A stretch of 64,000 nucleotides of DNA from a virus (IMGVR_UViG_3300027566_000006:1-64000), one strand, 5' to 3'. Shown: positions 10,332-34,716, counted from the first letter of the stretch. Notes: generated by a model from the letters alone, not told the origin. Program-made: numbers and translations.

Positions 10332-11099
10332 TCATGCTATCTCCTCTCGTATTTTTACCGCCTTCTTTTTATATTTTCTTTTTAGTTTATTTTCTTCTAA
10401 ATATTTTTTATAATCTTGTTCTATCCATTTATATATTTTTTCTAAAACTTCTTCGCTGTGACTAGAAAAATCATTTTTATAATACCAATCTTCCAGTTTA
10501 GAAGCTCTTTTACTACTATTACAATCCTTACATGACGGTACACAATTATCTAATCCATTACTACCTTCATGATCTACATGTTCTCTATGTAAAGTTTCAT
10601 TATATTTAATTAAATGTTCTTCTAATGTCGTTCCACAATAAGCACAAGAATAATTAAAGTATTTTAAACAGGTTTGCCATTCATTATCAGATATTTTATG
10701 AGTCTTATGTAAACTTCTGTAATTATTATATTCTTTTAACTTATCACGATTATTTGCTTCCCATTCCCTTCTCCCACCATTTTCTTTATATTTAGTATTA
10801 CTATTTCTAAGTCTTTCTCTTCTTCCTTCTTTTGTTTCTTTTAGTTTTTTGTCTGCTATTGCGACACGATCCCTATGGCTACGTCTCCAAGCTAAACTTT
10901 TTTCTAAACTACATTTTTTACATTCAGGATATAAACCATCACTTTTATTTTTCTTATTTTTGTAAAAATATTCTTCTGTACAAGGGAACCAAAAATTCTC
11001 TTCTGGAAATATTTTATGATGATAAGCACATTTCTTATGTAATTCTCCATTTATAATTTTATGATAATCTTCATAGGGATATTTATCTTGATTTCTAAT
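10332..11099 (-). CDS. HNH endonuclease (255 aa) with probable ATT start codon; absent from the ORF track
   Basis: Own translation: open 768-nt frame with CAYCG...HREHVDH...NCVPSCKDCNSSK and no Met; AAGGAGG lies 9 nt upstream of ATT; the stop overlaps the next ATG. Confidence 0.85.
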   Translation of the reverse strand: MRNQDKYPYEDYHKIINGELHKKCAYHHKIFPEENFWFPCTEEYFYKNKKNKSDGLYPECKKCSLEKSLAWRRSHRDRVAIADKKLKETKEGRRERLRNSNTKYKENGGRREWEANNRDKLKEYNNYRSLHKTHKISDNEWQTCLKYFNYSCAYCGTTLEEHLIKYNETLHREHVDHEGSNGLDNCVPSCKDCNSSKRASKLEDWYYKNDFSSHSEEVLEKIYKWIEQDYKKYLEENKLKRKYKKKAVKIREEIA

Positions 11100-12529
11100 G
11101 TTTAATTACCTCCTTTAAATATTAACTTCAAACGAATAATTGATTACATTAATCACAATTCCTAGTCTTTTTCTTCTTTTTGCTCATAGTCTGTTTAATC
11201 AATCTAGCAACATGCGTACCTTTATACATATTCATTAATTCAGATTTCTCAGCATCGTCTAATTGCTTACATTCTTCATCAAACCACTCAAGCATCTGGT
11301 TAAGATTATTAAATCCAAGTATTAAATTATTATGTAAATAAATAACATTATCTTTAGGAATCGAAATAGTTTCATTCCCAATACTATTTTCAACGGCATG
11401 TAATATAGGATATACTCTTTCGTTTAATAAATCATCCACTGTTTTGTCTCCACCTATCGGTACAGTATAAGGGTAATCTTCGAATATTTTCTCATCTGCT
11501 TTGAGATAATTTGGAGTGGTAATTGATAATTTTATACCTTCCACTTTTTCAATTTGTTTAATTAATTCTTTTAGGTTATTCACTTTTGACCTCCTCTTAT
11601 GTATTTATTTATTTTTCTATTTTATTATACCCTTAATTCAATTTTAATTTTAATTGTTCGACTTCTAGTATTTCTCTTGTCTTGCAGAGTTCTTCAATTT
11701 CAATTTCTACTTCTTCCAATCTGACGTTAACAATCTTCAACTTTTCTTCTCTAGATAGTTTCTCCCACATTATGTATTACTCTCTCCTTTCTTTATTTTT
11801 ATATTGATAGCAAATCAATATTTGAAGTTAATTTATTATGATAAATTCAAATCCATTCTTCAAGGGAGAAGAATTCATTGTTTTACTATAAATATAATTT
11901 ATTCTTCCTAAATCATCACGAAAAAACATCTTTTCATCGTGAACCTCAAAACAGTAATATTCTCTACCAACCGTTACGCCTTTTTCAGTAGGACTGTTGC
12001 CACTTATACATTTTATTCTTTCCATAATTCTTTCCTTTCGTTACAGAATGATTCTTTGGTATTAATCCTCTTTCCACACATCTCTTGTTCTCAAATACTC
12101 TAGTATATCTTCTGTTGGTATATTGCGAAGAAATGTTTGCCAATATTTATCACCATAATAATATTTAGTGTATTCTTCCATAGTCGTGAATGTTTTATTG
12201 TTTCGTTTCCCTATTATAATTGCTTCTTTATTTTTCATAAATTTTTACTCCTTTTAACACAAATTAAGTAATTGGTATTAATTATAATGTTGATATATGT
12301 TCCCAATTATAAATATGCATATCATGAAACATTTTGATTATAAATTCATATTCTTTGGTTTCTTGAATATATCTTTCTGCCTCTTCTTTCCCATAAATCA
12401 TATAAGGTTTGAACCATAATCTTTCTTTTAATTCTAATGCTCTTTCTGAGTACCGAATTAGAGTTTTATAAATACCTTCTTGATTTTCTTTCAATATATT
12501 ATCACTCATTACAAAACCTCTATTCTATG

Positions 12530-12724
12530 TTAATTAATTTCTTCTATTGAATTAATTTGTGGTTCACCTGCATCTACTGAAACTAGTTTAAGTTCCATCT
12601 CTATATATTTATCAATAGCCTTTTCTGTAGCTTCATCTTCATCTTTTGCATATACGGTTATATTTCTTTCAATATATCTAGTAACATGTGACCCAACATT
12701 AACTTTATACTTCATAATTTTCAA
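12530..12724 (-). CDS. Small hypothetical protein, paralog of 26758..26943
   Basis: 46/61 residues identical from MKYKV onward. Confidence 0.8.
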   Translation of the reverse strand: MKIMKYKVNVGSHVTRYIERNITVYAKDEDEATEKAIDKYIEMELKLVSVDAGEPQINSIEEIN

Positions 12725-13637
12725 TTCTCCTCCTTTTAATCAATTCTACAATTGGTTCACTTTACACGATGTATATTAACATCATAAATATTATTATCAA
12801 TATATTTTATTTTTCTTCCATATTTCATTAAATCATTTTTATCATCATAATTAATATCAGTAATGAACAAGTCAACAAGATTAAGATTAACTATTCTTAC
12901 ATAATATCCAGTATCAAATTTTGCCTTAAACTCATTAACAAAGGATTCATTTTCAATAAGCCAATAATCATTAATAATCTCTCCTGCTTCGTGTGGTTCA
13001 GTTAGTTGAATAACGTCATATGCATCCATGAAAGATTTACTTTCAGGTGGTATTTTAAATTTAAGTATTTCTCCTATCATTTTAATCCTCCTAACTCGTT
13101 ACACAATGTCTTTTGGTCATATAAGTTAATCGTTTAACTACTCTACATTCATTACCATTTATTGTACGTTCTATTTCTCTTAATTCAAATTTATTAATAT
13201 TATTATCTTTGATAAATTGATTAATTTCTTTTTCAAAATAAATAATCTCTATCGTAGTCTTATCTATAATCCAATTATTTAAATCACCAGTAAATATAAA
13301 ATCTTTTATACCCATTTTTCTTCTCCTCTCAAATCATGATCAACTACCGAATTGGTATTAATATTTATTACCATTCTTCTTCATCCGGCTCCACAAAACT
13401 AAATCCCATACTGACAGTGGTTACTTCTGTCACACCGCATTTGGGACATTTAAAAGTTTTATCAACCAAATGCATAAATACCTCTTCGCTATCTGGAGTT
13501 AATTGTTTAACCTTCCGTATAGGTGAAAGAGTTATAAAATTGTCTGCATTGTCTGTATAACCACACAAATCACATTTACAAGTAATTAAAGTCAAATTAT
13601 TTAACCTCCTTAAAGTTTGATCCAAATATAAGTTAGA

Positions 13638-14492
13638 TCACGAAATATTATGTTCTTCTATGTATTTATTTAGTTCCTGCTTTGTTGCTCCAGTTACCAA
13701 TATCTCAAGAAAATTTCTTTTATCATCTATAGACCATAATTCATGTTGTAAATAATAAGTGCCATCTTCTCTATAAACCCTACTTCTTTTAAATCTATAA
13801 GGAGGTTTTTCTTTTATATAATTTTTATACCCTTCTGTAGTCCACCATATAATTTTATCATATCTTTCTTTGGTGAAATTATCTATATACTTTGCTTCTA
13901 ATAATTCATCTAATGTCATTTCATGTTTAACACTATTACAATTCTTACAAGCAGGAACACAATTTCGTAAATCTAAATAACCATCATTATCTACATGCTC
14001 TTTATGAAATTGCTCATGATTTTCTTGATAATTATCTTCATAAGTCCTCCCACAATAAGCGCATTTCCATTCAAACACTTCACAGCAAGATATCCATTCA
14101 GCACTATTAATATCATGTCTTTTATGTCTTTTAGTTTTAGCGTATCCATTCATTTTGTCTTTATTATTTTTTCTATATAATTTACGATTTTCCTTTTGTT
14201 GAATTTGATTTCTTTTCATTGCCGCTTTACCTTTAGGATTTCTAATATATTTTCTTACATTTTCTATAAACCCATCCCAATGATTATTAATATAATTCAA
14301 TGATCTTTTACTTGTACACTTTTTGCATTCTGTTTGAAAACCTTTTTCTGGTTTACTTTTATTTTTCATGTAAAAATATTCTACGGTTTCAGGAAACCAT
14401 TCTTGACACATTGTACATCTACGTTCTTTTATTTCATTAACTTCTCTAATATTTTTAAAAAATTTAGGATTTGTTTTTGTATATTTACCCAA
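13638..14492 (-). CDS. HNH endonuclease
   Basis: CAYCG...HKEHVD...NCVPACKNCNSVK plus N-terminal zinc ribbon; same family as 10332..11099. Confidence 0.85.
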   Translation of the reverse strand: MGKYTKTNPKFFKNIREVNEIKERRCTMCQEWFPETVEYFYMKNKSKPEKGFQTECKKCTSKRSLNYINNHWDGFIENVRKYIRNPKGKAAMKRNQIQQKENRKLYRKNNKDKMNGYAKTKRHKRHDINSAEWISCCEVFEWKCAYCGRTYEDNYQENHEQFHKEHVDNDGYLDLRNCVPACKNCNSVKHEMTLDELLEAKYIDNFTKERYDKIIWWTTEGYKNYIKEKPPYRFKRSRVYREDGTYYLQHELWSIDDKRNFLEILVTGATKQELNKYIEEHNIS

Positions 14493-15507
14493 TATTTATT
14501 TTTCCTTTCTGTTATTATTGATTCAAATAAAGAATTCATTAAAATGCAGTTCTTAAAAAAGTAATAAGTATTTTATTGCCATCTCTGGTTGCCGAATAAA
14601 TTTTATTACCATCATCATTACAAGATTCATCTGTAGTTTGATACCATAATATTTCTTCAACAACCTTTTCTGTAACTATACCCTTATGGAATCTAGTTTT
14701 AAATTCTTCACCTATAATTAATTCTAAATTTTCTCTCGTAATATCGACAAACTCTAAAATTGTAGCAGTAGTATCATTAAGTTTTGACCATAAAGATTCT
14801 TTTATCTGTTTCATATAATTCATCTCCTTATAATTTAATAGAACATAACTTTTATCTTAACTTAAACTTTCATACTCTTCTTCGGTAATTTCATAACACT
14901 CACAATTCATCTTTTGGAGCCATTCTACAAACAGATCGTTATCACTACACATTATCTTACCAACATACACACCGTTCTTAAATGCTTTCCCGAATCTAAA
15001 ATTTAATTCCATTATAATTCCTCCTCAATTTTATTAAAATATCCTTATTAATATAATACCACTATATTTATATTTGTCAATTATTTATTTTATGCTTTTA
15101 ATTAATTCCTAACTAACAAAAATTCCTTTACCCTCGCTCTTACCCCTTCCCTTTATACCATTGATTAAGTGCTTCTAAACATTCATCAAAAGATTCATAC
15201 TCTAAACCTTGCTCTAACGAATTATAATATATACGTTTATCACAATTATCCCCAGTACATTTGTGTAAACCACACCGTTTAATAAAACAACAAATAACCC
15301 AGTGGTACTTACCATTTGGGTTATAATAAATCGAAGTCAATATCCCTGTTTTTCGGTTCTTGTGTTGCCAAGTTTTGTAAACTTTTCTTTTTTTAATTTC
15401 TTTAAATTTCACATTAATCATTCCCCATCATTTTAATATGTATTATGGGTTTTTGAATGACTTAGTATGTGAAATTTTAACTATAAATATGAATTATGAA
15501 TAATGAT

Positions 15508-15903
15508 TTACAAATTACTTTGAATTAACCCTTTAAGAACGTCAATAGTATCAATAGTAATGTCTTTACAATCTTGATTCATAGTGTAACCATTAAACTT
15601 AATATCGTCTTTTTTAAGTTCAGATTGGAGTTGGTCTAACATCTTATATATGTCATTATCTGGCAATTTGCGTTTTTTGTCAAGAACAGAATTTCCATCA
15701 TCATCCTTTAATAACTCATCAAGTGTCATTTGATTATAATCGGCAATAATTTGTAATCTGGCAATATTAACAATATCTAATGTATCCTTTTTCTTCATAT
15801 CTAAAAGCCAATCACCGGGAAGCCCTATTGCTTCTCCCCATTCTTTATAATTCTTACATCCAGAACGTTCAAATAACATGTTGACTTTTTCACCGAAATT
15901 CAT
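15508..15903 (-). CDS. XRE-like HTH transcriptional regulator
   Basis: N-terminal FGEKV...IADYNQMTLDELL HTH pattern; downstream of the YopR-like gene, as yopS is in SPbeta. Confidence 0.6.
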   Translation of the reverse strand: MNFGEKVNMLFERSGCKNYKEWGEAIGLPGDWLLDMKKKDTLDIVNIARLQIIADYNQMTLDELLKDDDGNSVLDKKRKLPDNDIYKMLDQLQSELKKDDIKFNGYTMNQDCKDITIDTIDVLKGLIQSNL

Positions 15904-15931
15904 TTATTACACCTCACTTATTATTTATTGC

Positions 15932-16321
15932 TTACTGCCATTTGTTAGTTGTATATTTTTGCCCTATATCCTTTTGATTAAATACTAATAATCCTTTACC
16001 TTCCGTAGAAAAAACAAGTGAGTTTTTATCTAACCATCCATTATATTCTTCAACCTTACATAAATTCCATTGATTAGGATGATTGCATATACTCACTAGA
16101 TTTTCAATTCCTTTTTCAATTCCTGTTAAAAGCCTATAGTAAGTTTTCTCAAACAGTAATTTATTTAATACTTCAAAGCTTTCTTCTTTAATTAATTCGT
16201 CTAACAATTTTATTTGAGAATTAAGATAAGAAATATCTTTGAAATTATATCCCTTATCTATTAATCCATTCTTCATAAAATTTAATACTTTATATTTCAT
16301 CCACATTGTTTTTAAAATCAT
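15932..16321 (-). CDS. Hypothetical protein coupled to the repressor gene
   Basis: ATGA overlap with the 16318..17280 stop. Confidence 0.6.
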   Translation of the reverse strand: MILKTMWMKYKVLNFMKNGLIDKGYNFKDISYLNSQIKLLDELIKEESFEVLNKLLFEKTYYRLLTGIEKGIENLVSICNHPNQWNLCKVEEYNGWLDKNSLVFSTEGKGLLVFNQKDIGQKYTTNKWQ

Positions 16322-17280
16322 TTAAGCAACAACTCCTCGTATTGCACAAATTTTTCTTTTAGTTTAAAAGGATAACCATAATCAAATCTATCACAAATAT
16401 CAATATAATCATCTTTTGTGACTTCGCCTTTTTCTCTATATATATCCATAGCCATTTGAATCATTCCTGATTCATAAACTGTTGTTGCTGTAAGATATGG
16501 ATTATCAACCCATTTCTTAATCCTCGTCATACGAGAATTAAATAAAGCTGAATGAAATTTTTCAAATTTGTTTTTACCAGGAATTCTAAAAATAAGATTT
16601 TCAAAACGATTAATTTTACTTTTTCTAGGATCAGCTATTCTAGGATTATTAGTTATCTCTCCGTTATTCTCAACGTAGATTTCTTGCTCAAAGGTATCCT
16701 TAATTAATCCTACAGTTGAAGTTTCAACTTTTATAGTCCTTATATCATCATTGTTATTTTTCCTTAGTTTAATTATATTATTGTCAAAGTCAACATCATC
16801 TATAGAAAGGTTAATAATTTCTTCTAATGTTTCATCTCCGACTGTTCTGCCTCTAACCCCTAAGAAAAGCAATTCTAAAAGCAACTGGTCTTGTTCATTA
16901 TATAAGAGTTTTTGGTAATCTTTCAATTTCTCTTTAGATATAAACTTATTTAATAAAGCTTGCTTGCTAACATGCTTTTTAATATCAATAAACCTTGCTC
17001 TATTCTCTTTGTGCAAAACCAAATTCTTGTTTATGCAAAAATCAATATAAGTTACTAAAATAGATTTATTTTTGTCTCCACTACTTTTTGAAGTATTCCC
17101 AAATTTAGAGAATAACTCGTCTAATTCAGAAATCGTTAAGTTATAAACTGGTTTATTAACCAATTGTTCATACTCATCTATTGTACGCAGAATAAAAGAA
17201 TCTGATTCAGCAGTAGCCGTAGGTTTACTGCTCAAATATTCTTGCTTGATTTCATTGTCTACTTCATAAACCATATCCAT
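16318..17280 (-). CDS. YopR/MrpR-like repressor with a catalytically degenerate tyrosine-recombinase fold
   Basis: 320 aa; box I-like LELLFLGVRG..EEIINLSIDDVDF but no HxxR or LGH..Y; directly follows a DGQHR gene, as yopR follows yopQ in SPbeta. Confidence 0.7.
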   Translation of the reverse strand: MDMVYEVDNEIKQEYLSSKPTATAESDSFILRTIDEYEQLVNKPVYNLTISELDELFSKFGNTSKSSGDKNKSILVTYIDFCINKNLVLHKENRARFIDIKKHVSKQALLNKFISKEKLKDYQKLLYNEQDQLLLELLFLGVRGRTVGDETLEEIINLSIDDVDFDNNIIKLRKNNNDDIRTIKVETSTVGLIKDTFEQEIYVENNGEITNNPRIADPRKSKINRFENLIFRIPGKNKFEKFHSALFNSRMTRIKKWVDNPYLTATTVYESGMIQMAMDIYREKGEVTKDDYIDICDRFDYGYPFKLKEKFVQYEELLLK

Positions 17281-17281
17281 T

Positions 17282-18649
17282 TTAAATCCCCTCCGTTAGT
17301 AAGTTATACAATTTAGTTCTTAGAGTTTTATTAGCATCCTTATTGTTGTTTACCATCCCTAAATCTTTCCATAGTTTATTAGTATTCTTGAAGTTAATAG
17401 ATTTCATCTGTTTCTTTAATATTTCTTTCCAATCTTTATTGTTTTGTAATTTAGCAGATAGAGCAATATAGGCATAGAAAATATTTTTATTATTAATCAT
17501 ACTGGTTTCTCTGATTTTATAGGGATCAGCTATAAATTCTTCTGAATATAACCCCATCAAATAATCAGTAAACTCAACAATCCACTTTCCTATATTTCTA
17601 ATATTACTACTTATTTTTAATTGTTCTTCGTAGCATTCTTTAATGGCTTCAGCAACAATACTCTTTTTAGTTAATGCTTTATTGAGCCTAATATAACTAT
17701 CTTCTTCTTTCATTACTTTAGCAAGTTCAGATAGTTTATCATCCACTATAACATCTATAACTAAATTTTCCGATTTATTATAATCCTTTAATTGTATCCA
17801 TTCTTTCTTCATAGGTTTTTGTTTATCTTTTTGGGTCATATAATCATGAGCAGCCTTTTCGGATAAAAATGTTATTGTGACTTGCCAATTAAACTGTAAC
17901 TCAGGATTTTCCATTAAAGCTAGAGTATTTGCTGTTTTTCGATGAAAACCGTCTACTATGTTGATGATGCTACCTTCATTGATTGTTAAAGTTTCCTTAT
18001 TATCATTATATGAAACGCTAGATTCACCATTGTTTAAAATATTTAAAATAATTGGATCTGGATATTGTTCTCCTGCAAGCATACGATCTTTAATTTCTTT
18101 AATTTTTACTTTATCTATATTTATTTGTTCTCCAAATGCAGTTATTTTAGGATTTCTCTGAGTAGAAAAATTATAAAGGATAGCATTTTTCTCATCTATC
18201 TCTCCTAATAACTGGGCAGACATAGGAAGTTGCCATATTCTACTCTCTGATAAACCTACCCTTTGAGCCTTTTCAAGCACTAGAGGAAAAATATCTTCAT
18301 TATTTTGTTCTTCTTTGTAATCTTTCCATTGATTATATTCTAATTCAGTAAAATAGTCTTGAGGATTAATTCTAAATTCACTATTTACTTTCGCTAATAC
18401 TTTCCCAAGTATAAGCGTAAAAAGAAATAGGAAACGAACATCGGTTTCAGAATCAGTGAGAGTATTTAGAGGGATATTTTCAGATAATACCCAAGTAGCT
18501 CGTAAACTACCATTAGTACTCCTTAACCCTCTTGATATAAACTCTTTTCTAACTTCCTCTTTGATGTCTTTATCGTATCCTATTCCCTTTACGATTTCGC
18601 TTAACTTATTTTTTAATTGTAATTCTTGCTGTTTAATCATTATTGACAC
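17282..18649 (-). CDS. YopQ-like DGQHR/DndB-family (ParB-superfamily) protein
   Basis: QRN motif and IVDGFHR motif; 455 aa; synteny with the YopR-like gene. Confidence 0.7.
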   Translation of the reverse strand: MSIMIKQQELQLKNKLSEIVKGIGYDKDIKEEVRKEFISRGLRSTNGSLRATWVLSENIPLNTLTDSETDVRFLFLFTLILGKVLAKVNSEFRINPQDYFTELEYNQWKDYKEEQNNEDIFPLVLEKAQRVGLSESRIWQLPMSAQLLGEIDEKNAILYNFSTQRNPKITAFGEQINIDKVKIKEIKDRMLAGEQYPDPIILNILNNGESSVSYNDNKETLTINEGSIINIVDGFHRKTANTLALMENPELQFNWQVTITFLSEKAAHDYMTQKDKQKPMKKEWIQLKDYNKSENLVIDVIVDDKLSELAKVMKEEDSYIRLNKALTKKSIVAEAIKECYEEQLKISSNIRNIGKWIVEFTDYLMGLYSEEFIADPYKIRETSMINNKNIFYAYIALSAKLQNNKDWKEILKKQMKSINFKNTNKLWKDLGMVNNNKDANKTLRTKLYNLLTEGI

Positions 18650-18679
18650 ACCTCCGTATTCTTTATTATTATGTAATAC

Positions 18680-18709
18680 ATTCTAATATAAATATACACT
18701 GGTTGTCAA
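18680..18709 (-). promoter_or_regulatory. sigmaA-type promoter for the yopQ/yopR-like operon
   Basis: TTGACA-18-TAGAAT on the minus strand. Confidence 0.6.
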
Positions 18710-18750
18710 TATAATATACATTTAATTTTTATATTTTATTATTAATATGC

Positions 18751-19002
18751 CTATTCTGTATGAATTCTTGCCCCATTTGGAATATCATCTATGTTTATGT
18801 ATTCATGATGAAATTCTTGACCTAACATCTCTAAGTATTTTTTGACAGTATCTTCATTAGCATAATACTTAAAACTTCCTTTCCCATCTACGGGGATTCC
18901 TGAATAAAGCGTGTGATAATACCCTTGGCTTGTTTCTCGTATGTTTACAAAGTTTCCGGCTTGATTTTTAATAACCCAAACTTGTTTGTTTTGCATTGGC
19001 AT
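18751..19002 (-). CDS. Hypothetical protein, probably SOS-regulated
   Basis: 83-aa ORF with AAGGAGG RBS downstream of an SOS box. Confidence 0.6.
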   Translation of the reverse strand: MPMQNKQVWVIKNQAGNFVNIRETSQGYYHTLYSGIPVDGKGSFKYYANEDTVKKYLEMLGQEFHHEYINIDDIPNGARIHTE

Positions 19003-19049
19003 ATGTATAATTCCTCCTTAAATTTAATAATATGATTCAACTAAATTAT

Positions 19050-19063
19050 AGAACACTTGTTCG
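19050..19063. promoter_or_regulatory. LexA/DinR (Cheo) SOS box
   Basis: CGAACAAGTGTTCT on the minus strand (GAAC-N4-GTTC), about 10 bp downstream of an extended -10 TGcTATAAT at 19073-19081. Confidence 0.75.
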
Positions 19064-19224
19064 CTTTTATTTATTATAGCATCTTGGTAAATTAATACAA
19101 TGATAATTTTAAGTTTGAATTTGAAAAATAAATACTTTGTGAAATCCTTTACTTATTAACTATATTTTATATTTTATACCTTTATTTAAATATTACAATT
19201 CAAACCTATCTAAAATATTGGACT

Positions 19225-19962
19225 TTATTCGACTTTTTTAAAGATAGGTAGTGCAATAATACCACTTAATAACACTCCATACATTATAGAATTGCTCACC
19301 CAATTACTATTTATTGACAATTGTAAAATATATAATATGAAAATAATTACTAATGAAATGCCTTTAAACTTTACTTTCTCGTTATCAGTTAACAATCTAT
19401 TCTTATGTTCAACTGGTGCATATACCATAGCAATGACGAAAACTGTCAAAAAAATGGATAAATTTATTATATAATTGTATGGTATTAAAGCCGATAGTAA
19501 ACTGAATAGGGTTAAAGTAGCTAGAGATATCCATGCACATTTCGTATATGAGTTGAAGTGCAGACCCCCTACAAAGACTCTAAGCGACATAAATGCAAGG
19601 ACTACAACAAGCATTTGGGGTAATATTCCAAGAACAAGTCCGACAATTAAAAGGAGCGAACCCTTAATTAAAGCTCCCCATAAAATTTTAAAACCATAAT
19701 AATAAAAGTATTTATAATTGTGTTTTAGATATTTTCGACTTTGATAATCCTCGTTTAATAATTCTATTTTAGATTTTTGTTTTTTAGTTAAACCATCTAG
19801 AAATTTTATTATATTTTCTAATTTATTTATTAGTTTAGTATGTTTTTCTATTTCACCTATTAAACCTTCATGCATTTTTACCTGTAGCCATTTTGCTAAG
19901 ATATAAGAAAACCATTTAACGAATTTTAGAGTGTATAAATATTTTATATTTTTATTTTGCAT
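19225..19962 (-). CDS. agrB: Accessory gene regulator B (autoinducing-peptide processing peptidase)
   Basis: YGFKIL, LRVFVGGLH-x5-C (catalytic His/Cys) and YAPVEHKNRLL motifs; multiple TM helices. Confidence 0.9.
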   Translation of the reverse strand: MQNKNIKYLYTLKFVKWFSYILAKWLQVKMHEGLIGEIEKHTKLINKLENIIKFLDGLTKKQKSKIELLNEDYQSRKYLKHNYKYFYYYGFKILWGALIKGSLLLIVGLVLGILPQMLVVVLAFMSLRVFVGGLHFNSYTKCAWISLATLTLFSLLSALIPYNYIINLSIFLTVFVIAMVYAPVEHKNRLLTDNEKVKFKGISLVIIFILYILQLSINSNWVSNSIMYGVLLSGIIALPIFKKVE

Positions 19963-20266
19963 TTGTTACTATCCTTTTATATGTAAATCTTTTAGGTCTT
20001 CTTAAAACATTGTTATGTTTGTATATACTGTCGTATGTATCATACAGGCTTCGCTTTTGTGCTTGTAAATGATGTTTATTTTTTCGACTATTCCTATTCT
20101 TATGATATAAACAATATTTTTTATATATACAATCTGTTATTTCAATTTCCCATTGCTCAAGGGGTGTCTCCACTATAATTATATTTGCTAATGGAAACAC
20201 CTTAGAGCGAGTTTTGAATAACCTATCAAAATACTTAATTCTCTGTACCATTAATTCATCAATCAT
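19952..20266 (-). CDS. Basic hypothetical protein between the MazF fusion and agrB
   Basis: 104 aa, RBS present, overlaps the agrB start. Confidence 0.6.
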   Translation of the reverse strand: MIDELMVQRIKYFDRLFKTRSKVFPLANIIIVETPLEQWEIEITDCIYKKYCLYHKNRNSRKNKHHLQAQKRSLYDTYDSIYKHNNVLRRPKRFTYKRIVTNAK

Positions 20267-20291
20267 TATTACATCTCCTTAATTTAGAGTG

Positions 20292-21152
20292 CTACAAGGC
20301 GCACACATAACTATTTGTGCTTTCATATTCATAAACTACATTTTCAATATTTCTATTATATTTTTTACAATAGTTAGCCAATCTACCAACTATATTATCT
20401 GATATACTACTTAATCCTCTTGACTTCTTTGTTTGGGGATGACTATTCAATACTTTAATTTGCTCTATCAATTCAAATGCAATATCATCATTAAATAAAC
20501 AGTCAATCAAACCTAATTGCTTCTCGATTGCCGTATTCACTTCAAATATTTTTTCTTCTGACAAGTCTAAAACCTTAATTGGCACTCTATTATAAAACAA
20601 TCTTCTTTTAGTCACTGTTCTTATTTGTTCGAGACAAATAATGCTATCTTGGCGCATACCTTCATTTGTTGTTATTTTTACATGCGTAGGCATTGGTCTT
20701 TTTTGTTTTGTAGTTAAAGGGGCTATGGTTAACATACTACTATTTTCATTGCCCTTATTATTTGAAATAATAAGGCAAGGTCTAATACCCTCTTGTTCAG
20801 AATCTAAGTTATTGAAACCAAGATCAATATAATAAATACTTCCTCTACTGGGATAATAATTTGCCCAACTTTTATCTTCATTAGGATCACACTTTGAATA
20901 ACCACAAATTTGACATAAATGTAAGTATGTAACTCTCCCCTGACTTGCTCTTTCTATAACTCTTAAGACTTCCCTTTCGGGTAACACAGAGATTTTCTTG
21001 TCTAGTATGTTATTGATGTAATTTGCATCCACCATACGGCAATCCTGAGCAAACATTTTTACTGACCTGTGACCTTTTGCAAAGTTTACCATTATTGCTA
21101 ATTCTTCCTTAATTGCTTCTAGGGATTTTTTATCCACCTTTTCAGTTGCCAT
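20292..21152 (-). CDS. mazF: PemK/MazF-family endoribonuclease with N-terminal XRE-like HTH and C-terminal extension
   Basis: RGSIYYIDL..SEQEGIRPCLIISN..TIAPLTT..PTHV..DSIICLEQIRTV matches MazF; the first ~95 aa look like an XRE HTH. Confidence 0.85.
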   Translation of the reverse strand: MATEKVDKKSLEAIKEELAIMVNFAKGHRSVKMFAQDCRMVDANYINNILDKKISVLPEREVLRVIERASQGRVTYLHLCQICGYSKCDPNEDKSWANYYPSRGSIYYIDLGFNNLDSEQEGIRPCLIISNNKGNENSSMLTIAPLTTKQKRPMPTHVKITTNEGMRQDSIICLEQIRTVTKRRLFYNRVPIKVLDLSEEKIFEVNTAIEKQLGLIDCLFNDDIAFELIEQIKVLNSHPQTKKSRGLSSISDNIVGRLANYCKKYNRNIENVVYEYESTNSYVCAL

Positions 21153-21194
21153 TTAAAACCACTCCTTCAATATTTTATATTCTTAATATATGTG

Positions 21195-21223
21195 ATTATA
21201 CTATTTGTTAGAACATATTGCAA
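21195..21223 (-). promoter_or_regulatory. sigmaA-type promoter for the HTH-mazF/orf/agrB unit
   Basis: TTGCAA-17-TATAAT. Confidence 0.6.
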
Positions 21224-21236
21224 TAAATTTATTTTT

Positions 21237-21278
21237 ATATTCTGTATAAACCAAAACAAATTAATTTATACAGAATAT
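21237..21278. repeat. Perfect 14-bp inverted repeat between agrD and the mazF promoter
   Basis: ATATTCTGTATAAA-N14-TTTATACAGAATAT; no U-tract on the minus strand, so an operator or atypical terminator. Confidence 0.7.
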
Positions 21279-21296
21279 TGGAGTTATGTAGTCTAA

Positions 21297-21440
21297 TTAT
21301 TTAGACAACATAGAAGGGGTTTTGGGCTGATTAAGCCACATAAAAGATGCTGTACCAGCTCCAGTTCCAGCATACTTTGCTACAAATCCAACAACGGTAA
21401 TAATAGCTACGGTTAAAACAGGAAACATATACTTCTTCAT
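21297..21440 (-). CDS. agrD: AgrD cyclic-lactone autoinducer peptide precursor (47 aa); absent from the ORF track
   Basis: MKKYMFPVLTVAIITVVGFVAKYAGTGAGTASFMWLNQPKTPSMLSK: hydrophobic leader, S-FMWL ring candidate, QPxxP tail, GAAAGGAG RBS. Confidence 0.9.
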   Translation of the reverse strand: MKKYMFPVLTVAIITVVGFVAKYAGTGAGTASFMWLNQPKTPSMLSK

Positions 21441-21468
21441 AAAATTCTCTCCTTTCTTTTAATTTAAT

Positions 21469-22260
21469 TTATACATCAATATCATCGAGCATATGCTGAT
21501 AAGATTGTTGTAACCCAAACATCTTAGATAATAAATAATTAATAGGGATTATATAAAGAAATATTAAAATTGTTGGTATAGTGGTAAATAAAATACTTAT
21601 CATAATTCGTATTATTGTTGATAATTCATTAAAAATATTGGAACTAGACATCCATTTTACTGCACTTGCTAAAACAAATAAAACTAAGCTAACAAATATT
21701 ACTGTAACTATTGAAAGAACTTTATCTTTAAAAATATTAGACATATACTTCTTTTCAAATATCATTGATTTATAATATATAAAATAAACTAGGAATATTT
21801 GAAATATTTTTACGGGTAATGTCATTAAAAATTTTACCCATATATTAGCATTAATTAATTCTAAAGATTCATTTGATAAGCCTAACATTAATGGAACATA
21901 TACCATTTCCGTGAGAGTTATAGCTATCATCCCAAATACAATTGCAATAATAATTTTATACCATTTAATACTATCTTCAATATAGTTTGTTTTTTCTAAT
22001 ATATATTTTAATGAAATAAATAACATTATTAATGGAATGAAGAATTTTAATACAAAATTAGGAATAATATAAATAAATATATTTATGCTTATTGCAGTTA
22101 AAACAGTAGGCAACGCCAACCATTTAATATTTTCTTTCCATCTATAAGTGTCTACTAAATCATGTCTTTTTAATTGTATTAAACATAATAATACCCAAAC
22201 AAATTCCTCTGGAATTGATATTAACCAAAAATTCAACAAGGCATTAATAACATTCTGCAT
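21469..22260 (-). CDS. AgrC-like multi-TM sensor domain lacking the histidine kinase domain
   Basis: 263 aa, about 7 hydrophobic helices, ends shortly after the last TM; immediately upstream of agrD. Confidence 0.55.
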   Translation of the reverse strand: MQNVINALLNFWLISIPEEFVWVLLCLIQLKRHDLVDTYRWKENIKWLALPTVLTAISINIFIYIIPNFVLKFFIPLIMLFISLKYILEKTNYIEDSIKWYKIIIAIVFGMIAITLTEMVYVPLMLGLSNESLELINANIWVKFLMTLPVKIFQIFLVYFIYYKSMIFEKKYMSNIFKDKVLSIVTVIFVSLVLFVLASAVKWMSSSNIFNELSTIIRIMISILFTTIPTILIFLYIIPINYLLSKMFGLQQSYQHMLDDIDV

Positions 22261-22337
22261 TTACCACACTCTCCTTTTATGTATTATACAATTATTACTA
22301 AATAGAGTATAGCATATATATTATGTTTTGTCTATAT

Positions 22338-22901
22338 TTATTTTATATTTTTGTTAGAATTTTTAATCGCATAGTAAAGGATGATAAATACGTACATTCT
22401 TATCATCAGATCACCGACTGAAACTATTGTCCAACCGAAATCAAAAATGTCACACAAATAAATCATTTTACAATAAGCATTACCTAATACATGTATACCA
22501 TCTTGGATAAATTCAGGTTTAACGTACCCCGTCCAATAAGATAAATCGGGAAATACTGGCATACCACCATTAGCTTTAACTGCAATTTTATTTAAGGTTG
22601 CCCCTAACCATAAGCAAAATGTAGCTATTACCATAGGAGACTTAATTAAACTACCATTTTTATCTTCATTTAGATTGTATTTCAGTATCAACGGTATGTA
22701 ACTCAATAACGTTGCTGTCTTTATGTAATAGGCATAAGGAATAAACCAGTAAATATTATTCCATATTGTGATTTCCAGAAAAATATAGAAAATAGCAAAT
22801 AGGAGTGGCGGGTATATGTGCCACGACTTAAATATTAGACTTAGTTTATATTTGTTTTTTAATTTGGCATATAAAAATGCCCCAATAATAAATTCAATCA
22901 A
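22338..22901 (-). CDS. DUF5317-like membrane protein
   Basis: LN..AVKANGGMPV and CDIFD..SVGDL motifs. Confidence 0.7.
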   Translation of the reverse strand: MIEFIIGAFLYAKLKNKYKLSLIFKSWHIYPPLLFAIFYIFLEITIWNNIYWFIPYAYYIKTATLLSYIPLILKYNLNEDKNGSLIKSPMVIATFCLWLGATLNKIAVKANGGMPVFPDLSYWTGYVKPEFIQDGIHVLGNAYCKMIYLCDIFDFGWTIVSVGDLMIRMYVFIILYYAIKNSNKNIK

Positions 22902-23409
22902 TCAGTTTCCTTCTTTCTTTTTATATTTTAAATATCATTACAAAAGTAATAGTTCATCACAATTTAACCAACCAACCAATCAGCACATTGAATATCGAAA
23001 TGATCATCTTCTCTTATAGCAAAAACTAATAACTTCCCCTTACCCTCTATTTCCTTATAGTAAAAGGCATGGTCATTACAATAAACATTCATTAAGTCTG
23101 GTTGTTCAACTGCTATTTTAATTTCTTCTGGAGTAATTTCTGGTCTTTTCATATTCTCTTTCCTTTCTATATCATCACCAATTCAGGATTTCATTTAATA
23201 TTATCAACTTGTATTAAATAAACTTGTGCCGGATCTTCTGAATTTGCTTTAATCGCTAAATAATAATTACCCTCTAATGCATGAACAATAAGGTATTCTT
23301 CATTTTTATAAATAACTTATTTAGCAAATACCGCTTGTTGCAATAATGTTCCCCACATTTTTATATTCTCCTTTCATTTAATACCAAACCAGAATTTTGA
23401 ATCATTATT

Positions 23410-24063
23410 TTATTTAATTAATTGTGGATAATCATGTAATCCCCACCATCTTTGATAATTATTCACTACAATTTCAAATTCATCATCTTCAATTTCTTCC
23501 ATTGTATTATAAAATTCATCGTCCGCTGTGCATCCTCCGCACCCTTCCCCAATATAAATCATTACGCAAGATGGATTTACCTCTCTCATTTTTTGCAATA
23601 CTTTTAAAGCGATATCATCCATATAAGGCCATGACATAATAATTACATTTGTTTCTCTACCATATTTCTCTACCGCTTTAATAGCATCAATATTTTCAAT
23701 TGTTGTCCATAACCTATTATTACCTTCCCAATCTTCATGAGATTTCCATGAGAAATCATCTGTTGCTATAATATTAATCCCTTGTTGTTGTAATGCATAA
23801 CTTATTACACCTGTACCAGCCATAACCTCAAGACATTTTCTTGTACCAATCCATTTAGATAATGGCTCGATCCAATTTAAAGAAACTAAACTAAAACCAA
23901 TCTGTTTAATAAATTTAGTCCTTTTACTGTATGAATTCCAATCATTCACAAGGTATTCTGGATATGATTCTGGTATTTGTTTATTTTCTATTTGATTTTC
24001 AATATGTAAAATATCATCTTTCATTTCTGTAGTAAGTTCATCATCTTTCAATAAACTCCTCAT
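23410..24063 (-). CDS. Class I SAM-dependent methyltransferase-like protein
   Basis: LEVMAGTG motif I. Confidence 0.55.
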   Translation of the reverse strand: MRSLLKDDELTTEMKDDILHIENQIENKQIPESYPEYLVNDWNSYSKRTKFIKQIGFSLVSLNWIEPLSKWIGTRKCLEVMAGTGVISYALQQQGINIIATDDFSWKSHEDWEGNNRLWTTIENIDAIKAVEKYGRETNVIIMSWPYMDDIALKVLQKMREVNPSCVMIYIGEGCGGCTADDEFYNTMEEIEDDEFEIVVNNYQRWWGLHDYPQLIK

Positions 24064-25200
24064 ATTTACCCACCCGTCTATTCAATTATTATAATCAACA
24101 ACATGATAAATGTGCAATTCTATAATGTTATTTTAATATGACATACCAAAAACAGGATGAGGTACTTTAAATAAATTTATAACTCTATTTCTTTCATCTG
24201 GAGAACTAATATAACCCATTATATATCCCATATTTGAATGAGCAATTTCAGGAGTATCACAATATATTTCATACGCTTTAATAAAATCCAACGCTTCATC
24301 CCTATTCTTACAGTCCGTCATAGCACTCAAAGTTTCTCCAATATTTTTTATTTCTTTACCTTTCCAATTCATAGTCATCCTCCTCTTAAATTTCATTACA
24401 GAAACAATGTTCTATAATGATTTCGCACACTCAATAAATATATTTCTAATTTGTTGTTCGTTTAAATCTTGATTCATAGATGCTGCTCTAAATGCGTACT
24501 TATACCATTCAATTTCAAAACCTGTTGGTTTATACAAGAAGTTTGGTAAGTTTTCTATTTCATCATCTTCTCCCCAATAATAAGGTCTAATAGTAAATAT
24601 CTCGTTGTCAAAACCATAAAAGTCATAATCACTATCAAGAGGATACCCGTAACAAACATCTACATTAATTTTTTCACATAGATTTTCCCACTCATCTGAA
24701 TTAACAATATCTCGATCAGGAAATAAATACTCTCTTTGTTCCATATAACTCCCTCCTCACTTTTAAATCACTTTCAACAAAACACATAATAGGTTATGAC
24801 TTAACGACAAGTAATTTCTTTAACATCAACCATAGTAAACTGTTCACTTTTAATTCCGGCTCTTTTATAAAATTCCAGTATTAAATCTTGTAGTTTACTT
24901 TCTAACCATTCTCTATCTTCCTTAGTTACATCTTCAAATAAGTAATCATCATATTCAAAACAATCTTCTGAATAGTGTTCGTTTAGTCGCTCAAAAATAT
25001 CATCCACATCAAAATAGGTAGGGAGTGGTACTACTTCACATCTACCAATATACATAATTTCTTGTTCAGAACAAAAATATTCTCTTGCTGCTTCTACAGC
25101 TTCTTCTCTGGTTTCAAAATCATCATTACTCCATAAACCATCTTGGGATTCATTAAATGTCCATCTGCCTTCTATATCACTCATTTAATTACCTCACTTT

Positions 25201-25626
25201 CTAAATCTGTTTGAAATACTTCATTAGTATCCTTATAATATTATTTCTATTCCCTTGCCCTTTCAAATTCAATAAACACTCTTGCAAATAATTTCCATTG
25301 TGTTCTGGATATATTGTAGCTCGATATAAATCACAACAATCATTTACTAAACTATCAAAAGACCAAGGATCACAATTCTTACCTCTGTATGTAGGAGTAT
25401 CCCATGCAAGATCATTTTTATAACCCCTTTTATACATTTCTTGCATTACTTTTCTATGATACCTAACTAATTTATAAGGGTTATAACTGAATATATAATC
25501 AACTACACTATGCTTTTTACCCCATCCATTTCCCCTGAGTGCCGCACATTCTCGATGCTGACCTAATAACTGCTGTCTAGGTAAATATGGAATTAATTTT
25601 TCATGCCATAAACGCATTTCAATCAC
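25201..25626 (-). CDS. TIGR02328-like pyrimidine-dimer glycosylase family protein
   Basis: MRLWHEKLIPYLPRQQLLGQHRECAALRGNGWGKKH signature. Confidence 0.8.
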   Translation of the reverse strand: MIEMRLWHEKLIPYLPRQQLLGQHRECAALRGNGWGKKHSVVDYIFSYNPYKLVRYHRKVMQEMYKRGYKNDLAWDTPTYRGKNCDPWSFDSLVNDCCDLYRATIYPEHNGNYLQECLLNLKGQGNRNNIIRILMKYFKQI

Positions 25627-25693
25627 CTCTATTAAATGATAAACTAAGCATTTCTATTTTGTCAACATTTATTTTTTTCTTTTAATAATTTAT

Positions 25694-26137
25694 TTATTCT
25701 TCTATAATCCATACTTTTACACTCTGTCTACCAAATTCGAATGCTTCTTTTTTAGTTTCCATGTAAAGGTCTATTCTATTACCTTTGATTGCCCCACCAG
25801 TGTCTAAAGCTATTGCATGACCATAACCTTCTATATATAACTTAGTCCCTAAAGGAATTATTCTAGAGTCAACTGCAACAGTACCCCTTGATACTCTTGT
25901 ACCACTTCTGGTTATTCCTCTTGAAGTTCCTTCTGAATGTGAGCGAGTATATGCAGTAGCTTTCATTACTATATGACTATTACTTTTTGTTTCTATTATT
26001 GGTTGAGTAATAACTCGGTTTTCTATTTGAGTATTTTTATAATTAGTTTTATAATTTTCATCTGATTGATTTAAGCATGGAGCAAACATTGAAATAAATA
26101 GTATTGTGCATATTACTATAGTTGCTAATTTAATCAA
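25694..26137 (-). CDS. Secreted 3D-domain (lytic transglycosylase-like) protein
   Basis: Signal peptide; ATAY...VAVDSRIIPLGT...DTGGAIKGNRIDLY. Confidence 0.9.
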   Translation of the reverse strand: MIKLATIVICTILFISMFAPCLNQSDENYKTNYKNTQIENRVITQPIIETKSNSHIVMKATAYTRSHSEGTSRGITRSGTRVSRGTVAVDSRIIPLGTKLYIEGYGHAIALDTGGAIKGNRIDLYMETKKEAFEFGRQSVKVWIIEE

Positions 26138-26757
26138 TTAATCACCTCTTTTATATTTATAATTTTAAACTATCCTTAATCATATCTAATAAATCACATG
26201 CATCATATTGTGAATAACTACCACCATCAAATTCTAGTAATATTTTATTTAATTCACAATCATTACAAGAATTATTACATTTAGAACTATCAAAATCTTT
26301 AAGTAGTTGTTTTAATTGAATTATAAAATTATTCATTTTACTCCACGCTCCTTTCAAAACATTATAGAAAGATTATTCTATTTAGTTTTAAAATTAACTC
26401 TGTCAGAATTTAAACCCATATTTTTACATATTCTTCGATAATTATTTCCACTTAAAGTATCATCTTTATCACTCAATGGATTAGTATAAACCCTTTGAAC
26501 ACATTTTTTATTTTCTTCTACTATTATTATAATGCCATTAAATTCATGTTTATATATATTGTTTTCACTATCAATTAATTCTCTCCTCCAATGTGTTGCT
26601 TGAATCATGGCAGTTAATTTTCTCTTTATAATAGGAATAGTTGAATCATCAAATTTTACACGAATACTTCTAAATTCATTAGCTACTCTTGTAGGTACAA
26701 AATATAAACTCATGAATTTATACCTCCTAAATATCATTACCTAATGAGTAATTCGTA

Positions 26758-26943
26758 TCAATCAATTTCGGTTATAAAATCTACTCTTGGTTCGCCAGCA
26801 TCTACAGAGTTTAATTTATATTCCATTTCTATATACTTATCAACAGCTTTTTCTCTGGCTTCGTCCTCATCTTTTGCGTAAACAGTAATAGTTCTTTGAA
26901 CAAATCTAGTAACATGTGAACCAACTTCAACCTTATATTTCAT
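26758..26943 (-). CDS. Small hypothetical protein, paralog of 12530..12724
   Basis: About 75% identity by manual alignment. Confidence 0.8.
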   Translation of the reverse strand: MKYKVEVGSHVTRFVQRTITVYAKDEDEAREKAVDKYIEMEYKLNSVDAGEPRVDFITEID

Positions 26944-29900
26944 TTATTTTCTCCTCCTAACTCATTATAAAATCAAAGATTGGTTACGATCTTCTTTCAT
27001 AAAATTTTTTCCAATAACCATATGGAAATGTGTATTCACTTCCACCATTACATGTTGTACATTTTTTAACATAATCTTTTTCATCATACCAGCATGTACA
27101 ACAATTAGAATAACTTGGAAACGCTCTATCATTCATTACTAATTTTTCAAGTATCTTTAAATCGTTTGTCTTATCCTTATCAGTTTGAATTTTTCCAAGA
27201 CTACATTTTTCTTTAATAAACCATTTAATAATTTTAATTTTATCTTCCTTTTTCATAAAATATCATACCTCACAAATCCCAATATATAGGCATCCAATTC
27301 TGCATAAAAGCATCGTTCTTTCTATTCAAATTATCTTACGCCATAAGCATCTTTCAATTCTTCAAATTCATCAATATATCTTTTCAGCATATTTATGAAA
27401 CCATTTCTAAAACTTTTGGTTCTAAGAATAAATTGTTTATCTTCGGTACAATAATATTGCATATCATCAAATAACAATCTTGCTTTCTTTTCAAATTTTT
27501 CATTCATCTTTTCTTCTAATGTTTTATCCATTTTATATACTCCCTTTCTATTTATTGGCTTAACATTATTATACAGTTTCACTCACCTAAAACAATAGAA
27601 ATTAGTTTTTAAAAAGTGAGGGGATGATTACCCCCTCTAGTGCTAGATCACATTTATCAAATAACACTTAAAAGTGTCTGATAACTAATTAAGTTTAATT
27701 TGTAAGAACAACTTTACAACCTAAATATTCTGCATCTAATATTGCTTGTTTGTTTGTAGCATCTTTGTAACAAAATACTCCAGATAAATATTGTTCATCA
27801 TTAATAGTTAATATATAACCATTTTCAATCGACATAACCTTTATAGTTTTCATAATTTACCCTCCTAGTTGTTTATTTTTGTATCACTACATTTATTTTA
27901 TTCTTTTGTATGATAAATGTCAAGAAAATATTTAAACCAAATTGACTATTGATTTTTAACTTATATCTTCAACGTAATAATTTTTATAATGATCTATATA
28001 ATCATCTTCTCGATTCCATTCAATTATAGGAAGATTATCTCTAAGTTCTTTAAGACGTTTCATATTTTCATCAACTTGCTTACACCATTGATTATAAGTA
28101 TACCAAAAATATTTTTGTTTAAGTTTCTTTTCCCATACTAATTTCATTATTTTTCGTTTATCTTTTCTATTCTCTAATTTCCATTTTAAAGCATAATACC
28201 AACCCACAAAATAATTTCTATCTGGTTTAATTTCACTCATAAACTTGTAACCTCCTTTGATTTCGTGATAAATCGAATCTTTTATTCTATAATCTCCCAA
28301 CTAATATTATCTGATAATAAATCTCTATCAAATAACATTTCTCTATCGTCTGTTTCTGCATCCATCTGAGCCATTTCTTCAAGAGTATATCCATCAGGAT
28401 AATATTCTGGAACAAGTTCGTATTCAATTACCATTGTTCTTGTCATTTTAACTTTTGCCATTTTTATATTTCTCCTTTCAATAATTCAATAAAATGAAAC
28501 ATTGGATCAAACTTTTATACCATATTCATTTAATACCGTTACACATATTGCTCTGCATAAAGACTTATCTTTAGCCCATTGTTTATTATTAGTTGTACCT
28601 ACATATGTAATATCTCCATGCGTACCTGAAGCATTACACCAAGCAGTTTTCCAACCATCGAATGTAGGATGTATAGTAATGTTGCACTTTTTAGCAAGTT
28701 TTATTGATTCTTCTATATCATTTAAATAATTAGGACAATAACGTCCAAATTCATAATTTTCAACTCCTTCATCTTCTGGATACCAGTAAGAAATCATATC
28801 ATAACAACTTGAATTCGGATGTTTATCTTTATCTTTAATCATACCCATAATATTTACAGCAATAAAGTCAATCTCATAATCCAACATTTTTATTTTCCTC
28901 CTATCTTAAAATCAAATCTCTCTTTGGATCAAACTTTACCAACTAAACTTAATAAAAACACAAGCAACTTGTATTACAAAATCTTGTTGATTATAACTTC
29001 CTATATAATTTTGAATGGCAATCGGAAAAGCAAATTCATGTGTATTTAAAGTTATCCTAATATTTAATTTACCAATATCAAAACCTTTTGTTAACATTTT
29101 TAGAACCTCCTAACTCAGTATAAAATCCGTCTTTGGAATTAACTTTCTAATAATACCGATTTACCAGAATAATTATCAAAAACCATATATTCTCCTTGTG
29201 GATCGGATTTAACAATAACTTTACTAAAAGGTACTTCGTCTACTCTTGACTTATATCCTTCCAACCAAGAAATACTAACTAATTTTGCATCTTCTCTTAC
29301 ATAAATTACACTACCATCTTCATATACTTCATCTTCATATATATCATTATATCTTTTAAATAAAACTATATCTCCTTGTTTTAATTCTGAATATTTCAAA
29401 ATATTTACCTCCCTCAATCTTTCATTTACTCGCTTATACTTCATCATACAAAGCAAATATCATGATGAAATTCACATTTGGTATTAATACGCCATTGAAT
29501 ATATTTTATGTACTTCTGCACTACAGTATTGAGTGCTATATTCCATCGGTTCACAGTATTTCATCATACAAAACATAATTTGATTATTATTAGGATATTC
29601 TTTAAAATATTCTTTCCCTATTAATTGTTCTTGGCCATCATATATATCCACTCTAAATGAATGCCCAAAATTTTTCATATTCAATTCGGATATTTCAACT
29701 GCATCACTTGAAAGATTAATTATATTACCTTCATGATTAATATATTTTTTCATATTAATTCCTCCTCAATAATTATTTTATGGCTGTTATATCGTGATCA
29801 ACCTTGCATTGTGTATTAACTATATAAAGATTCATTAATAGCATTTGTCATTATATTGTGATATTTATTAATAGCATCATTAATTTTACTTGTCACAACG

Positions 29901-34302: not shown

Positions 34303-34580
34303 AATTAATCATCTCCTTTTATAATATTAATTCACAATCACCTTTACACAGATATCCATTTGTCATAGGCACATCTATATCAGTCAATGTTGCTATATAA
34401 TCATCTGCATATTGTTGTTCTTTTATTTTTATAGTTTCTCCTACTAGATTTTTATACCACCAATCAGGACTACTACACTTTACTATTTTTACTTTTCTCA
34501 ATTATAAAACCTCCTTTTTATAATTTATAAATCCCAATATAACGGCATCTATCTTTGCACCAAAACCCAGGTTTTGTAAT

Positions 34581-34716
34581 GATTTTAATATAAATCAATT
34601 TACTGCCCACCTCAGTAATTTGACTTATATTAAAACGTCCTAAGTAAACCCTAACCGTATATGAGAGGTTTATTATATTATTTCTTTGGTGGGTGAGGTA
34701 GCCAACCTCAAAAGAA
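34581..34716 (-). ncRNA. Putative structured cis-RNA with a loop-loop pseudoknot
   Basis: Three hairpins; loop GGUGGG is complementary to an unpaired CCCACC in another hairpin. Confidence 0.35.

Follow-up and report, generated by a model that had tools for sequence, protein, structure and literature searches.

The early arms of SPbeta-like phages hold around a hundred small orphan genes, many of them anti-defence genes, and how such genes are gained and swapped is the question at stake here. The attC sites of integrons are folded elements of 55-140 nt, conserved in structure over sequence and used by IntI beside attI/Pc. The promoter early stem-loops (PeSLs) of T4-type phages combine strong sigma70 promoters with terminator stem-loops and act as mobile regulatory cassettes (Arbiol et al. 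2010, PMC2839356; PMC4122927), the stoperators of cluster A mycobacteriophages (L5 gp71 family) are asymmetric 13-bp sites bound by a monomer (PMC9283540), and SPBRE, the 15-bp MrpR (YopR) binding element of SPbeta, is bound by a repressor with a recombinase fold (PMC10516654). Here, we studied a window of 64,000 nucleotides, the first 64 kb of the 98,339-bp IMG/VR viral contig IMGVR_UViG_3300027566_000006 (28% GC; CheckV completeness 56%), in which two diverged copies of a 61-amino-acid (aa) early gene lie among short palindromes that recur at gene junctions. An initial annotation had taken them for two identically sized 228-bp cassettes, each bounded precisely by a pair of palindromes. Since these copies are the sole internal duplicate in the early arm, they offer a natural test of the palindromes as moving ends. 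Our results point instead to an exchanged unit made of a single gene and its downstream spacer, with copies that probably recombine with each other and a layout phased to translation starts. They also narrow the identity of the palindromes to half-sites in double-stranded DNA at a fixed distance from the start codon, as opposed to attC-like hairpins.

Both copies lie on the minus strand, which from position 1 to ~54.9 kb carries ~130 mostly small genes before a plus-strand module begins. The open reading frames (ORFs) are at 12530-12715 for paralog A (MKYK...EEIN) and at 26758-26943 for paralog B (MKYK...TEID), stop codons included. Both ORFs are real, and the 46 of 61 identical residues originally counted are exact; at the nucleotide level 144 of 186 positions are identical and the alignment has no indels. 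Third codon positions are identical in 41 of 62 cases (66%), so synonymous sites are far from saturated. The two are the only copies in the 98-kb contig and the only internal paralog pair in the early region of this phage. An outside copy with DNA was found for one family member, P0004, on the Joint Genome Institute (JGI) metagenome contigs L003 and L004; the other members of the family are P0003 and P0005-P0010. As had been claimed, the genes immediately flanking A and B have no similarity to each other, and all three copies, that of L004 included, have mutually unrelated neighbours. The 75-aa neighbour at first seemed to resemble a gene of L004, but the likeness was lost under composition-corrected BLASTP.

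A three-way comparison of A, B and the L004 copy outlined the tract that they have in common, which spans 12506-12729 (-) at locus A and 26734-26957 (-) at locus B. It runs through the ribosome-binding site (RBS) or ATG, the ORF, the stop codon, a 20-nt spacer and the sequence GTAATGA, identity between B and L004 starting 14 nt ahead of the ATG. Between A and B, the repeat covering 12506-12715 and 26734-26943 has 75% identity, and the resemblance of the two loci begins at the ATG and ends at this same GTAATGA, 24 nt beyond the stop codon. GTAATGA holds the ATG start of the next gene, and beyond it identity drops abruptly to background. Homology thus has its 5' limit at the RBS or ATG, which lies 10-24 nt inward of the upstream site, and its 3' limit 8 nt past the downstream site; at all loci the upstream palindrome stays outside the common unit, apart from a motif-level AACCAAT. 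The proposal that homology would stop at the palindrome cores is therefore not supported at either end in the nucleotide alignment of the two loci. Nor is a unit that is precisely site-bounded supported, given that the 24-nt leader and the upstream palindrome are excluded while the whole downstream site is included. What does stand is that roughly one gene occurs in different contexts, two here and a third in L004, with homology that does not extend past the flanking sites.

The leaders are informative in this respect. Compared without gaps, the 24-nt leaders of A and B agree at 9 of 24 positions, which is background, and they can be aligned only through compensating 4-nt indels around a common AGGAGGAGAA. 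At 66% third-position identity neutral flanks should still be recognisable, yet the leader is at background, which argues that it was not co-copied with the gene and that its equal length reflects a layout constraint and not descent. Moreover, the upstream spacers of A and B are nearer to the spacers of non-homologous neighbours (0.78 and 0.75) than to each other (0.675), with a mean of 0.60 over all pairs.

The outside copy, at positions 293-504 of L004, resembles B in its 5' part and A in its 3' part and 20-nt spacer. From 14 nt before the ATG it is identical to B, and it stays at 85-95% identity to B across the 5' two-thirds of the ORF; its identity to A is 85-90% in the remaining 3' third and from the stop codon through all of the 20-nt spacer as far as GTAATGA. 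This pattern marks the L004 copy as a mosaic of B-like and A-like halves. Homologs elsewhere had been expected to have different neighbours and flanking sites. The first holds at this one outside locus; the second does not, the copy having only a right half-site upstream and a weak downstream site (10.9 bits).

To define the palindromes, we printed all spacers in gene orientation and ran an expectation-maximization motif search, which returned the consensus YSAAW-N5-ATTTGRT.AYGA. A 24-nt position weight matrix (PWM) has 59 matches of at least 12 bits in the contig, compared with ~8 in Markov shuffles. All but four of the 59 lie inside the first 52.6 kb, and over the whole contig 41 are sense and 18 antisense; the early arm holds 39 sense matches, 36 of them intergenic. 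Matches are often paired across strands at an 8-nt offset, so the core of the motif is a 16-bp dyad, YSAAW-N6-WTTKR (5-6-5), which is followed on its 3' side by a T.AYGA tail. Placement is strict. The sequence CCAAW occurs within 12 nt past the stop codon in 15 of 91 spacers when 0.83 would be expected, and the stop-to-site distance is between −3 and +3 nt for 16 of 31 sites. The first base of the site lies 37-44 nt from the ATG in 16 of 25 sites, 40 nt being the commonest value (5/25). Most small early genes are joined in the order stop codon, dyad, T.AYGA tail, RBS and start codon, with the dyad ~40 nt ahead of the start. Plain genome-wide counts of patterns such as CCAAT gave no enrichment, the signal being limited to the spacers and the PWM. 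Between 41000 and 50100 (-) the signature differs from that of the first 32 kb: there are few dyads, and CAG, CAA or CAC usually comes after the stop codon (an ATAACAG-type junction).

Several identities for the dyad could be discarded. Watson-Crick counts at the arm pairs 1-16, 2-15 and 5-12 equal the column-shuffle expectation. The absence of arm-arm covariation rules out a hairpin or attC reading and shows that the arms are two half-sites recognised by their sequence. A scan for sigma70 promoters and terminators found none overlapping the four junctions that flank the paralogs, with promoter-like counts in both regions equal to the shuffled expectation, and this excludes a promoter or terminator reading. 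Upstream of locus B we noted a strong terminator-like hairpin at 27618-27637 (-) and an 11/12 sigma70-like promoter at 27895-27923 (-). Finally, SPBRE, recovered as AAAAATATGTATATA from seven SPbeta upstream regions named in the original description (PMC10516654), is unlike the dyad, and in the two scanned regions the dyads also lie off the sigma70-like promoters, so an identity as the MrpR operator was rejected.

With this matrix, all but one of the four flanking sites come out strong. The upstream site of A, CCAAT TGTAGA ATTGA (12740-12755 (-); 14.8 bits, core 12.9 bits), begins 1 nt past the stop codon of gene 12757-13080, and that of B, CCAAT CTTTGA TTTTA (26968-26983 (-); 17.0 bits), abuts the stop codon of gene 26984-27256; in both, the first base is 40 nt ahead of the ATG. 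The downstream site of B, CGAAT TACTCA TTAGG, followed by TAATGATAT (26740-26755 (-)), scores 17.2 bits. The downstream site of A, TAGAA TAGAGG TTTTG (12512-12527 (-)), is degenerate. Its core reaches 5.0 bits (9.6 bits over 24 nt) with a per-position null probability of 0.0024, and the genome has no enrichment at that score, which places it at chance level; only its right arm and its TGTAATGA tail are motif-like, and gene 12282-12509 starts at the ATG of that tail. The surrounding spacer is identical to that of L004 at 17 of 20 positions. Against the corresponding L004 site at 481, where orthology was defined independently of the centre, the degenerate site keeps 9 of 10 arm bases and 4 of 6 centre bases. 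Junction palindromes thus flank B on both sides and A convincingly on its upstream side. Both at locus A and in L004, the next gene begins with the ATG of the site tail. The gene that follows B can be read in frame from two ATGs, one at 26737 within the site tail (weak RBS) and another at 26713 behind AGGAGG, and it probably starts at 26713.

The geometry that inspired the cassette interpretation is exact. Positions 12512 and 12740, like 26740 and 26968, are the low ends of 16-bp cores precisely 228 bp apart, and at both loci the site lies 2 nt from the stop codon and the upstream site 24 nt from the ATG. The equal spacing does not, however, show that a site-bounded cassette has moved, because the value follows from the commonest site-to-start phasing (40), an ORF without indels (186) and the 2-nt gap. 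Two sites drawn from the observed distance distribution would match in about one case in ten.

Next, we considered the centres of the dyads. All 57 in the contig are distinct, and the four around the paralogs (TGTAGA, TAGAGG, CTTTGA and TACTCA) differ from one another. Together with the lack of arm covariation, this speaks against the two positions having exchanged in an attC-like or Xer-like way, and site-to-site recombinase exchange between them is not indicated. Comparison with phage X, L005 and L004 gave eight exact centre matches where 2.65 were expected, those of the early arm being collinear with four conserved early genes. The centres GAATCA and TATTGA follow the 61-aa gene in the same order at 11810-12059 of the window and at 678-1176 of L004, with unrelated genes between them, and this kept order makes locus A the positional counterpart of the L004 copy. 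TATTGA is kept in phage X as well, upstream of the homolog of gene 11633-11770; the two phages have this site, the RBS and the ORF in common there, and the upstream genes differ. Phage X also carries three ~275-aa paralogs, whose nucleotide homology is lost at the ORF ends and not at the sites 30-46 nt away. The two contigs IMG/VR 3300009671_000358 and 3300009647_000134 (L021-L029) have a 99.99% overlap over 51 kb and therefore derive from a single phage, at least 113 kb long. The same dyads abound in the early arm of this phage, which holds the three ~275-aa paralogs. The first 100 kb of SPbeta contain 21 copies of TAAAA-N6-TTTTA against 1.8 expected. This strict form is not enriched in our contig (3 against 3.7 expected), where the arms are C/G-capped (YSAAW/WTTKR).

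We favour, with modest confidence, ordinary gene-sized mosaic exchange through stereotyped spacers, in which the equal 228 bp comes from phasing and the sites are linked to expression and are not folded recombination sites. Precise site-to-site mobility is not shown by the paralog pair. The mobile unit would be the RBS, the ORF and the downstream spacer of a small early gene whose product has a predicted beta-beta-alpha-beta fold, and by copying or exchange it would have reached two slots in this phage and one in another. Its joints would arise by recombination in the short spacers, on the 5' side at the RBS and on the 3' side at the ATG of the next gene, and recombination among the copies would explain why the L004 gene has a B-like 5' end and an A-like 3' end. 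The identical 228 bp would then be a by-product of an ORF without indels, of a downstream spacer inherited in common and of the constant distance between site and start that every junction of this class keeps. Given that their arms are sequence-specific half-sites, the dyads are most likely bound by a protein, and they may act as a roadblock, as an operator-like element or as another expression-linked junction signal. The loss of homology at the ORF ends of the phage X paralogs lends support to this reading. A number of points weigh against it. The 5' breakpoint between B and L004 and the 3' breakpoint between A and L004 each lie 8-10 nt beyond a junction site's right arm, a common position that could mean that the junction motif takes part in the exchange. 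No centre recurs within the genome, and the map order of some is preserved in phages whose intervening genes differ; this would not be expected of a plain operator in which the N6 is free. Furthermore, the evidence comes from one paralog pair in the early region and one outside locus with DNA, and the MrpR site of SPbeta is unlike the dyad.

Some of these same points would be met by PeSL-like shuffling, in which the junction motif (dyad, tail and RBS, ~30-40 nt) would be a substrate of homologous or microhomology recombination, the gene would travel with one junction, and in-register exchange between related phages would swap genes between conserved junctions. The location of the breakpoints, on either side, at the 3' margin of junction motifs, the site, RBS and ORF that gene 11633-11770 and its phage X homolog have in common behind unlike upstream genes, the excess of collinear centre matches, the two ordered centres in our contig and L004 and the likeness of neighbouring spacers all agree with it, and the PeSLs themselves are a precedent (PMC2839356). 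We nonetheless consider it rather unlikely. The spacers are short and filled by the site and the RBS, so a viable joint is bound to fall close to one; simple descent at ~75% identity would also leave orthologous sites with matching centres; the downstream site of A has kept its arms better than its centre relative to L004; and the sites, unlike PeSLs, have neither promoter nor terminator. More speculatively, the dyads could be "addressed" crossover joints, each unique 6-bp centre pairing only with the same-numbered joint of a related phage, so that an Xer-like recombinase, or recombination guided by a site-binding protein, would swap genes when phages co-infect a cell. On this view the 61-aa gene would be a cassette that has come to fill two slots of identical geometry; we hold this to be improbable. 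That the sites may serve as exchange joints is not proved by the paralog pair.

A role in mRNA, as a processing or translation-coupling signal between stop codon and RBS, would make the paralog geometry unrelated to DNA mobility. It would fit the strict stop-to-RBS placement, the sense-strand bias, the fixed distance to the start codon and the tails, which as read from the spacers often carry an ATG followed by a stop codon within 2-5 codons. We find it quite unlikely all the same, given that dyad symmetry without covariation suits half-sites in double-stranded DNA better than an RNA hairpin, that 5-bp A/U-rich stems are marginally stable and that some sites are antisense or lie in the late arm. 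Least probable, in our view, is an integron-like or Xer/dif-module-like system in which a tyrosine recombinase of the phage (61129-62019, or 93935-94981 in the contig) would cut the dyads and move the cassette from site to site. The 5-6-5 dyad does have the geometry of a tyrosine-recombinase core site, many sites are spaced by single genes, both recombinases match PF00589 above its cut-off, and a dyad with an accessory motif directly follows 93935-94981. The homology, however, excludes the upstream site and leader, and with four unlike centres the two positions would be barred from Xer- or Cre-type recombination with each other. In addition, the downstream site of A scores no better than chance, and the constant 40 nt between site and start codon suggest a function in expression. 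Sites of 16 bp without hairpin covariation are also unlike attC. As for the enzyme, 61129-62019 scores 92.4 bits on the integron-integrase model TIGR02249, well under its cut-off of 265.

Gene 61129-62019 (+) itself encodes an Xer-like tyrosine recombinase (PF00589, 119.6 bits) whose best matches are Xer-type NCBIfam models, all under their cut-offs. It sits 34 kb from locus B and on the opposite strand. Its R..K..HxxR..H..Y set is intact in sequence, so it could be catalytically active; catalytic residues were read solely for this gene of the two. A composite element, in which the accessory motif AAATCCCAATnTATAGGCATC lies ~9-10 nt from a junction dyad in either orientation, occurs at 30-85, 7100-7157, 27265-27309 and 34520-34584 of the window and at 94982-95040 of the contig, the last copy directly 3' of recombinase gene 93935-94981. 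The exact AAATCCCAATnTATAGGCATC core was present in 14 IMG/VR stretches, six of which (L005, L008, L011, L014, L015 and L016) are dyad-rich too.

The 61-aa family comprises 10 clusters in 5.8 billion proteins, with lengths of 35-69 aa throughout and the invariant residues M1, K2, Y3, K4, S9, T12, R13, R17, T20, A23, K24, A29 and K32. The fold predicted for paralog A is beta-beta-alpha-beta with a mean predicted local distance difference test (pLDDT) of 85. Searches of Pfam, PHROGs, Foldseek (PDB and BFVD) and the ESM Atlas gave sub-threshold leads alone. In Pfam these were DUF4288 (23 bits, cut-off 27), DpnD-PcfM (21, cut-off 25) and RNA_pol_inhib (16, cut-off 27), all below the curated cut-offs, while the Foldseek matches to T7 Gp2 and to YkzG, the RNA polymerase epsilon subunit, had E values of only 0.6-1. 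With profile scores under the cut-off and no significant fold match, identities as a T7 Gp2-type RNA polymerase inhibitor (PF16857), DUF4288 or DpnD/PcfM protein were not supported. Scans for the family in viral contigs, metagenome contigs, genome contigs and GenBank phages gave no loci beyond the DNA of P0004, and a homolog was absent from the five related records examined.

Regarding the phage itself, gene 16318-17280 (-) encodes an MrpR/YopR-like repressor with a tyrosine-recombinase fold (PDB 8a0a, E 2e-13, and 9rd5, E 1e-17, by alignment; Pfam MrpR_N_CB). Its H-II and R-II catalytic positions are replaced, T and Y aligning with the substitutes found in MrpR, a protein that has itself lost recombinase activity (PMC10516654). 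The nearest annotated phage carriers of such a gene are SPbeta, phi3T and other large Bacillus phages. The adjacent 17282-18649 encodes a YopQ-like protein with 28% identity to SPbeta yopQ (E 4e-32). From these two SPbeta-type proteins and the carriers of the MrpR-like gene, we take the contig to come from an uncultivated temperate phage, distantly SPbeta-like, whose host has a low GC content, and the window to be its early arm. A megablast of 8 kb against phages gave no match, and no close relative was found with the YopQ-like protein as probe. An 813-nt gap left by the ORF caller contains, at 10336-11108 (-), an unbroken ORF of ~255 codons resembling an HNH endonuclease (CxxC ... HVDH ... 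CxxC). Its head has no ATG, GTG or TTG; AGGAGG stands there with an ATT 9 nt on, which suggests an ATT start.

Among described systems, these junctions resemble PeSLs in that a short conserved motif recurs between the small early genes, mostly orphans, of a hyperplastic region, and single-gene units vary between related phages, with candidate joints at or beside the motif. Such joints were seen in the three contexts of the 61-aa gene and for 11633-11770 against phage X, in spacers too short to separate the coincidence from chance. The dyads differ from PeSLs in having no sigma70 promoter, terminator or covarying stem. Like stoperators, they are a single short site repeated dozens of times in the narrow gaps between genes of a temperate phage, with a bias in the direction of transcription; unlike stoperators, each copy has a centre of its own within a 16-bp dyad core. 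With SPBRE they have in common the type of phage, here one encoding MrpR-like and YopQ-like proteins, and the character of a repeated intergenic element, although AAAAATATGTATATA is asymmetric, promoter-proximal and present in ~10 copies in SPbeta. From integrons they depart in the lack of an IntI-type integrase score, in 16-bp dyads without covariation and in a unit that does not end at the sites. Even so, the unit that the copies have in common, an ORF together with its downstream site, recalls integron cassettes, which are promoterless single ORFs, each with a site just past the stop codon.

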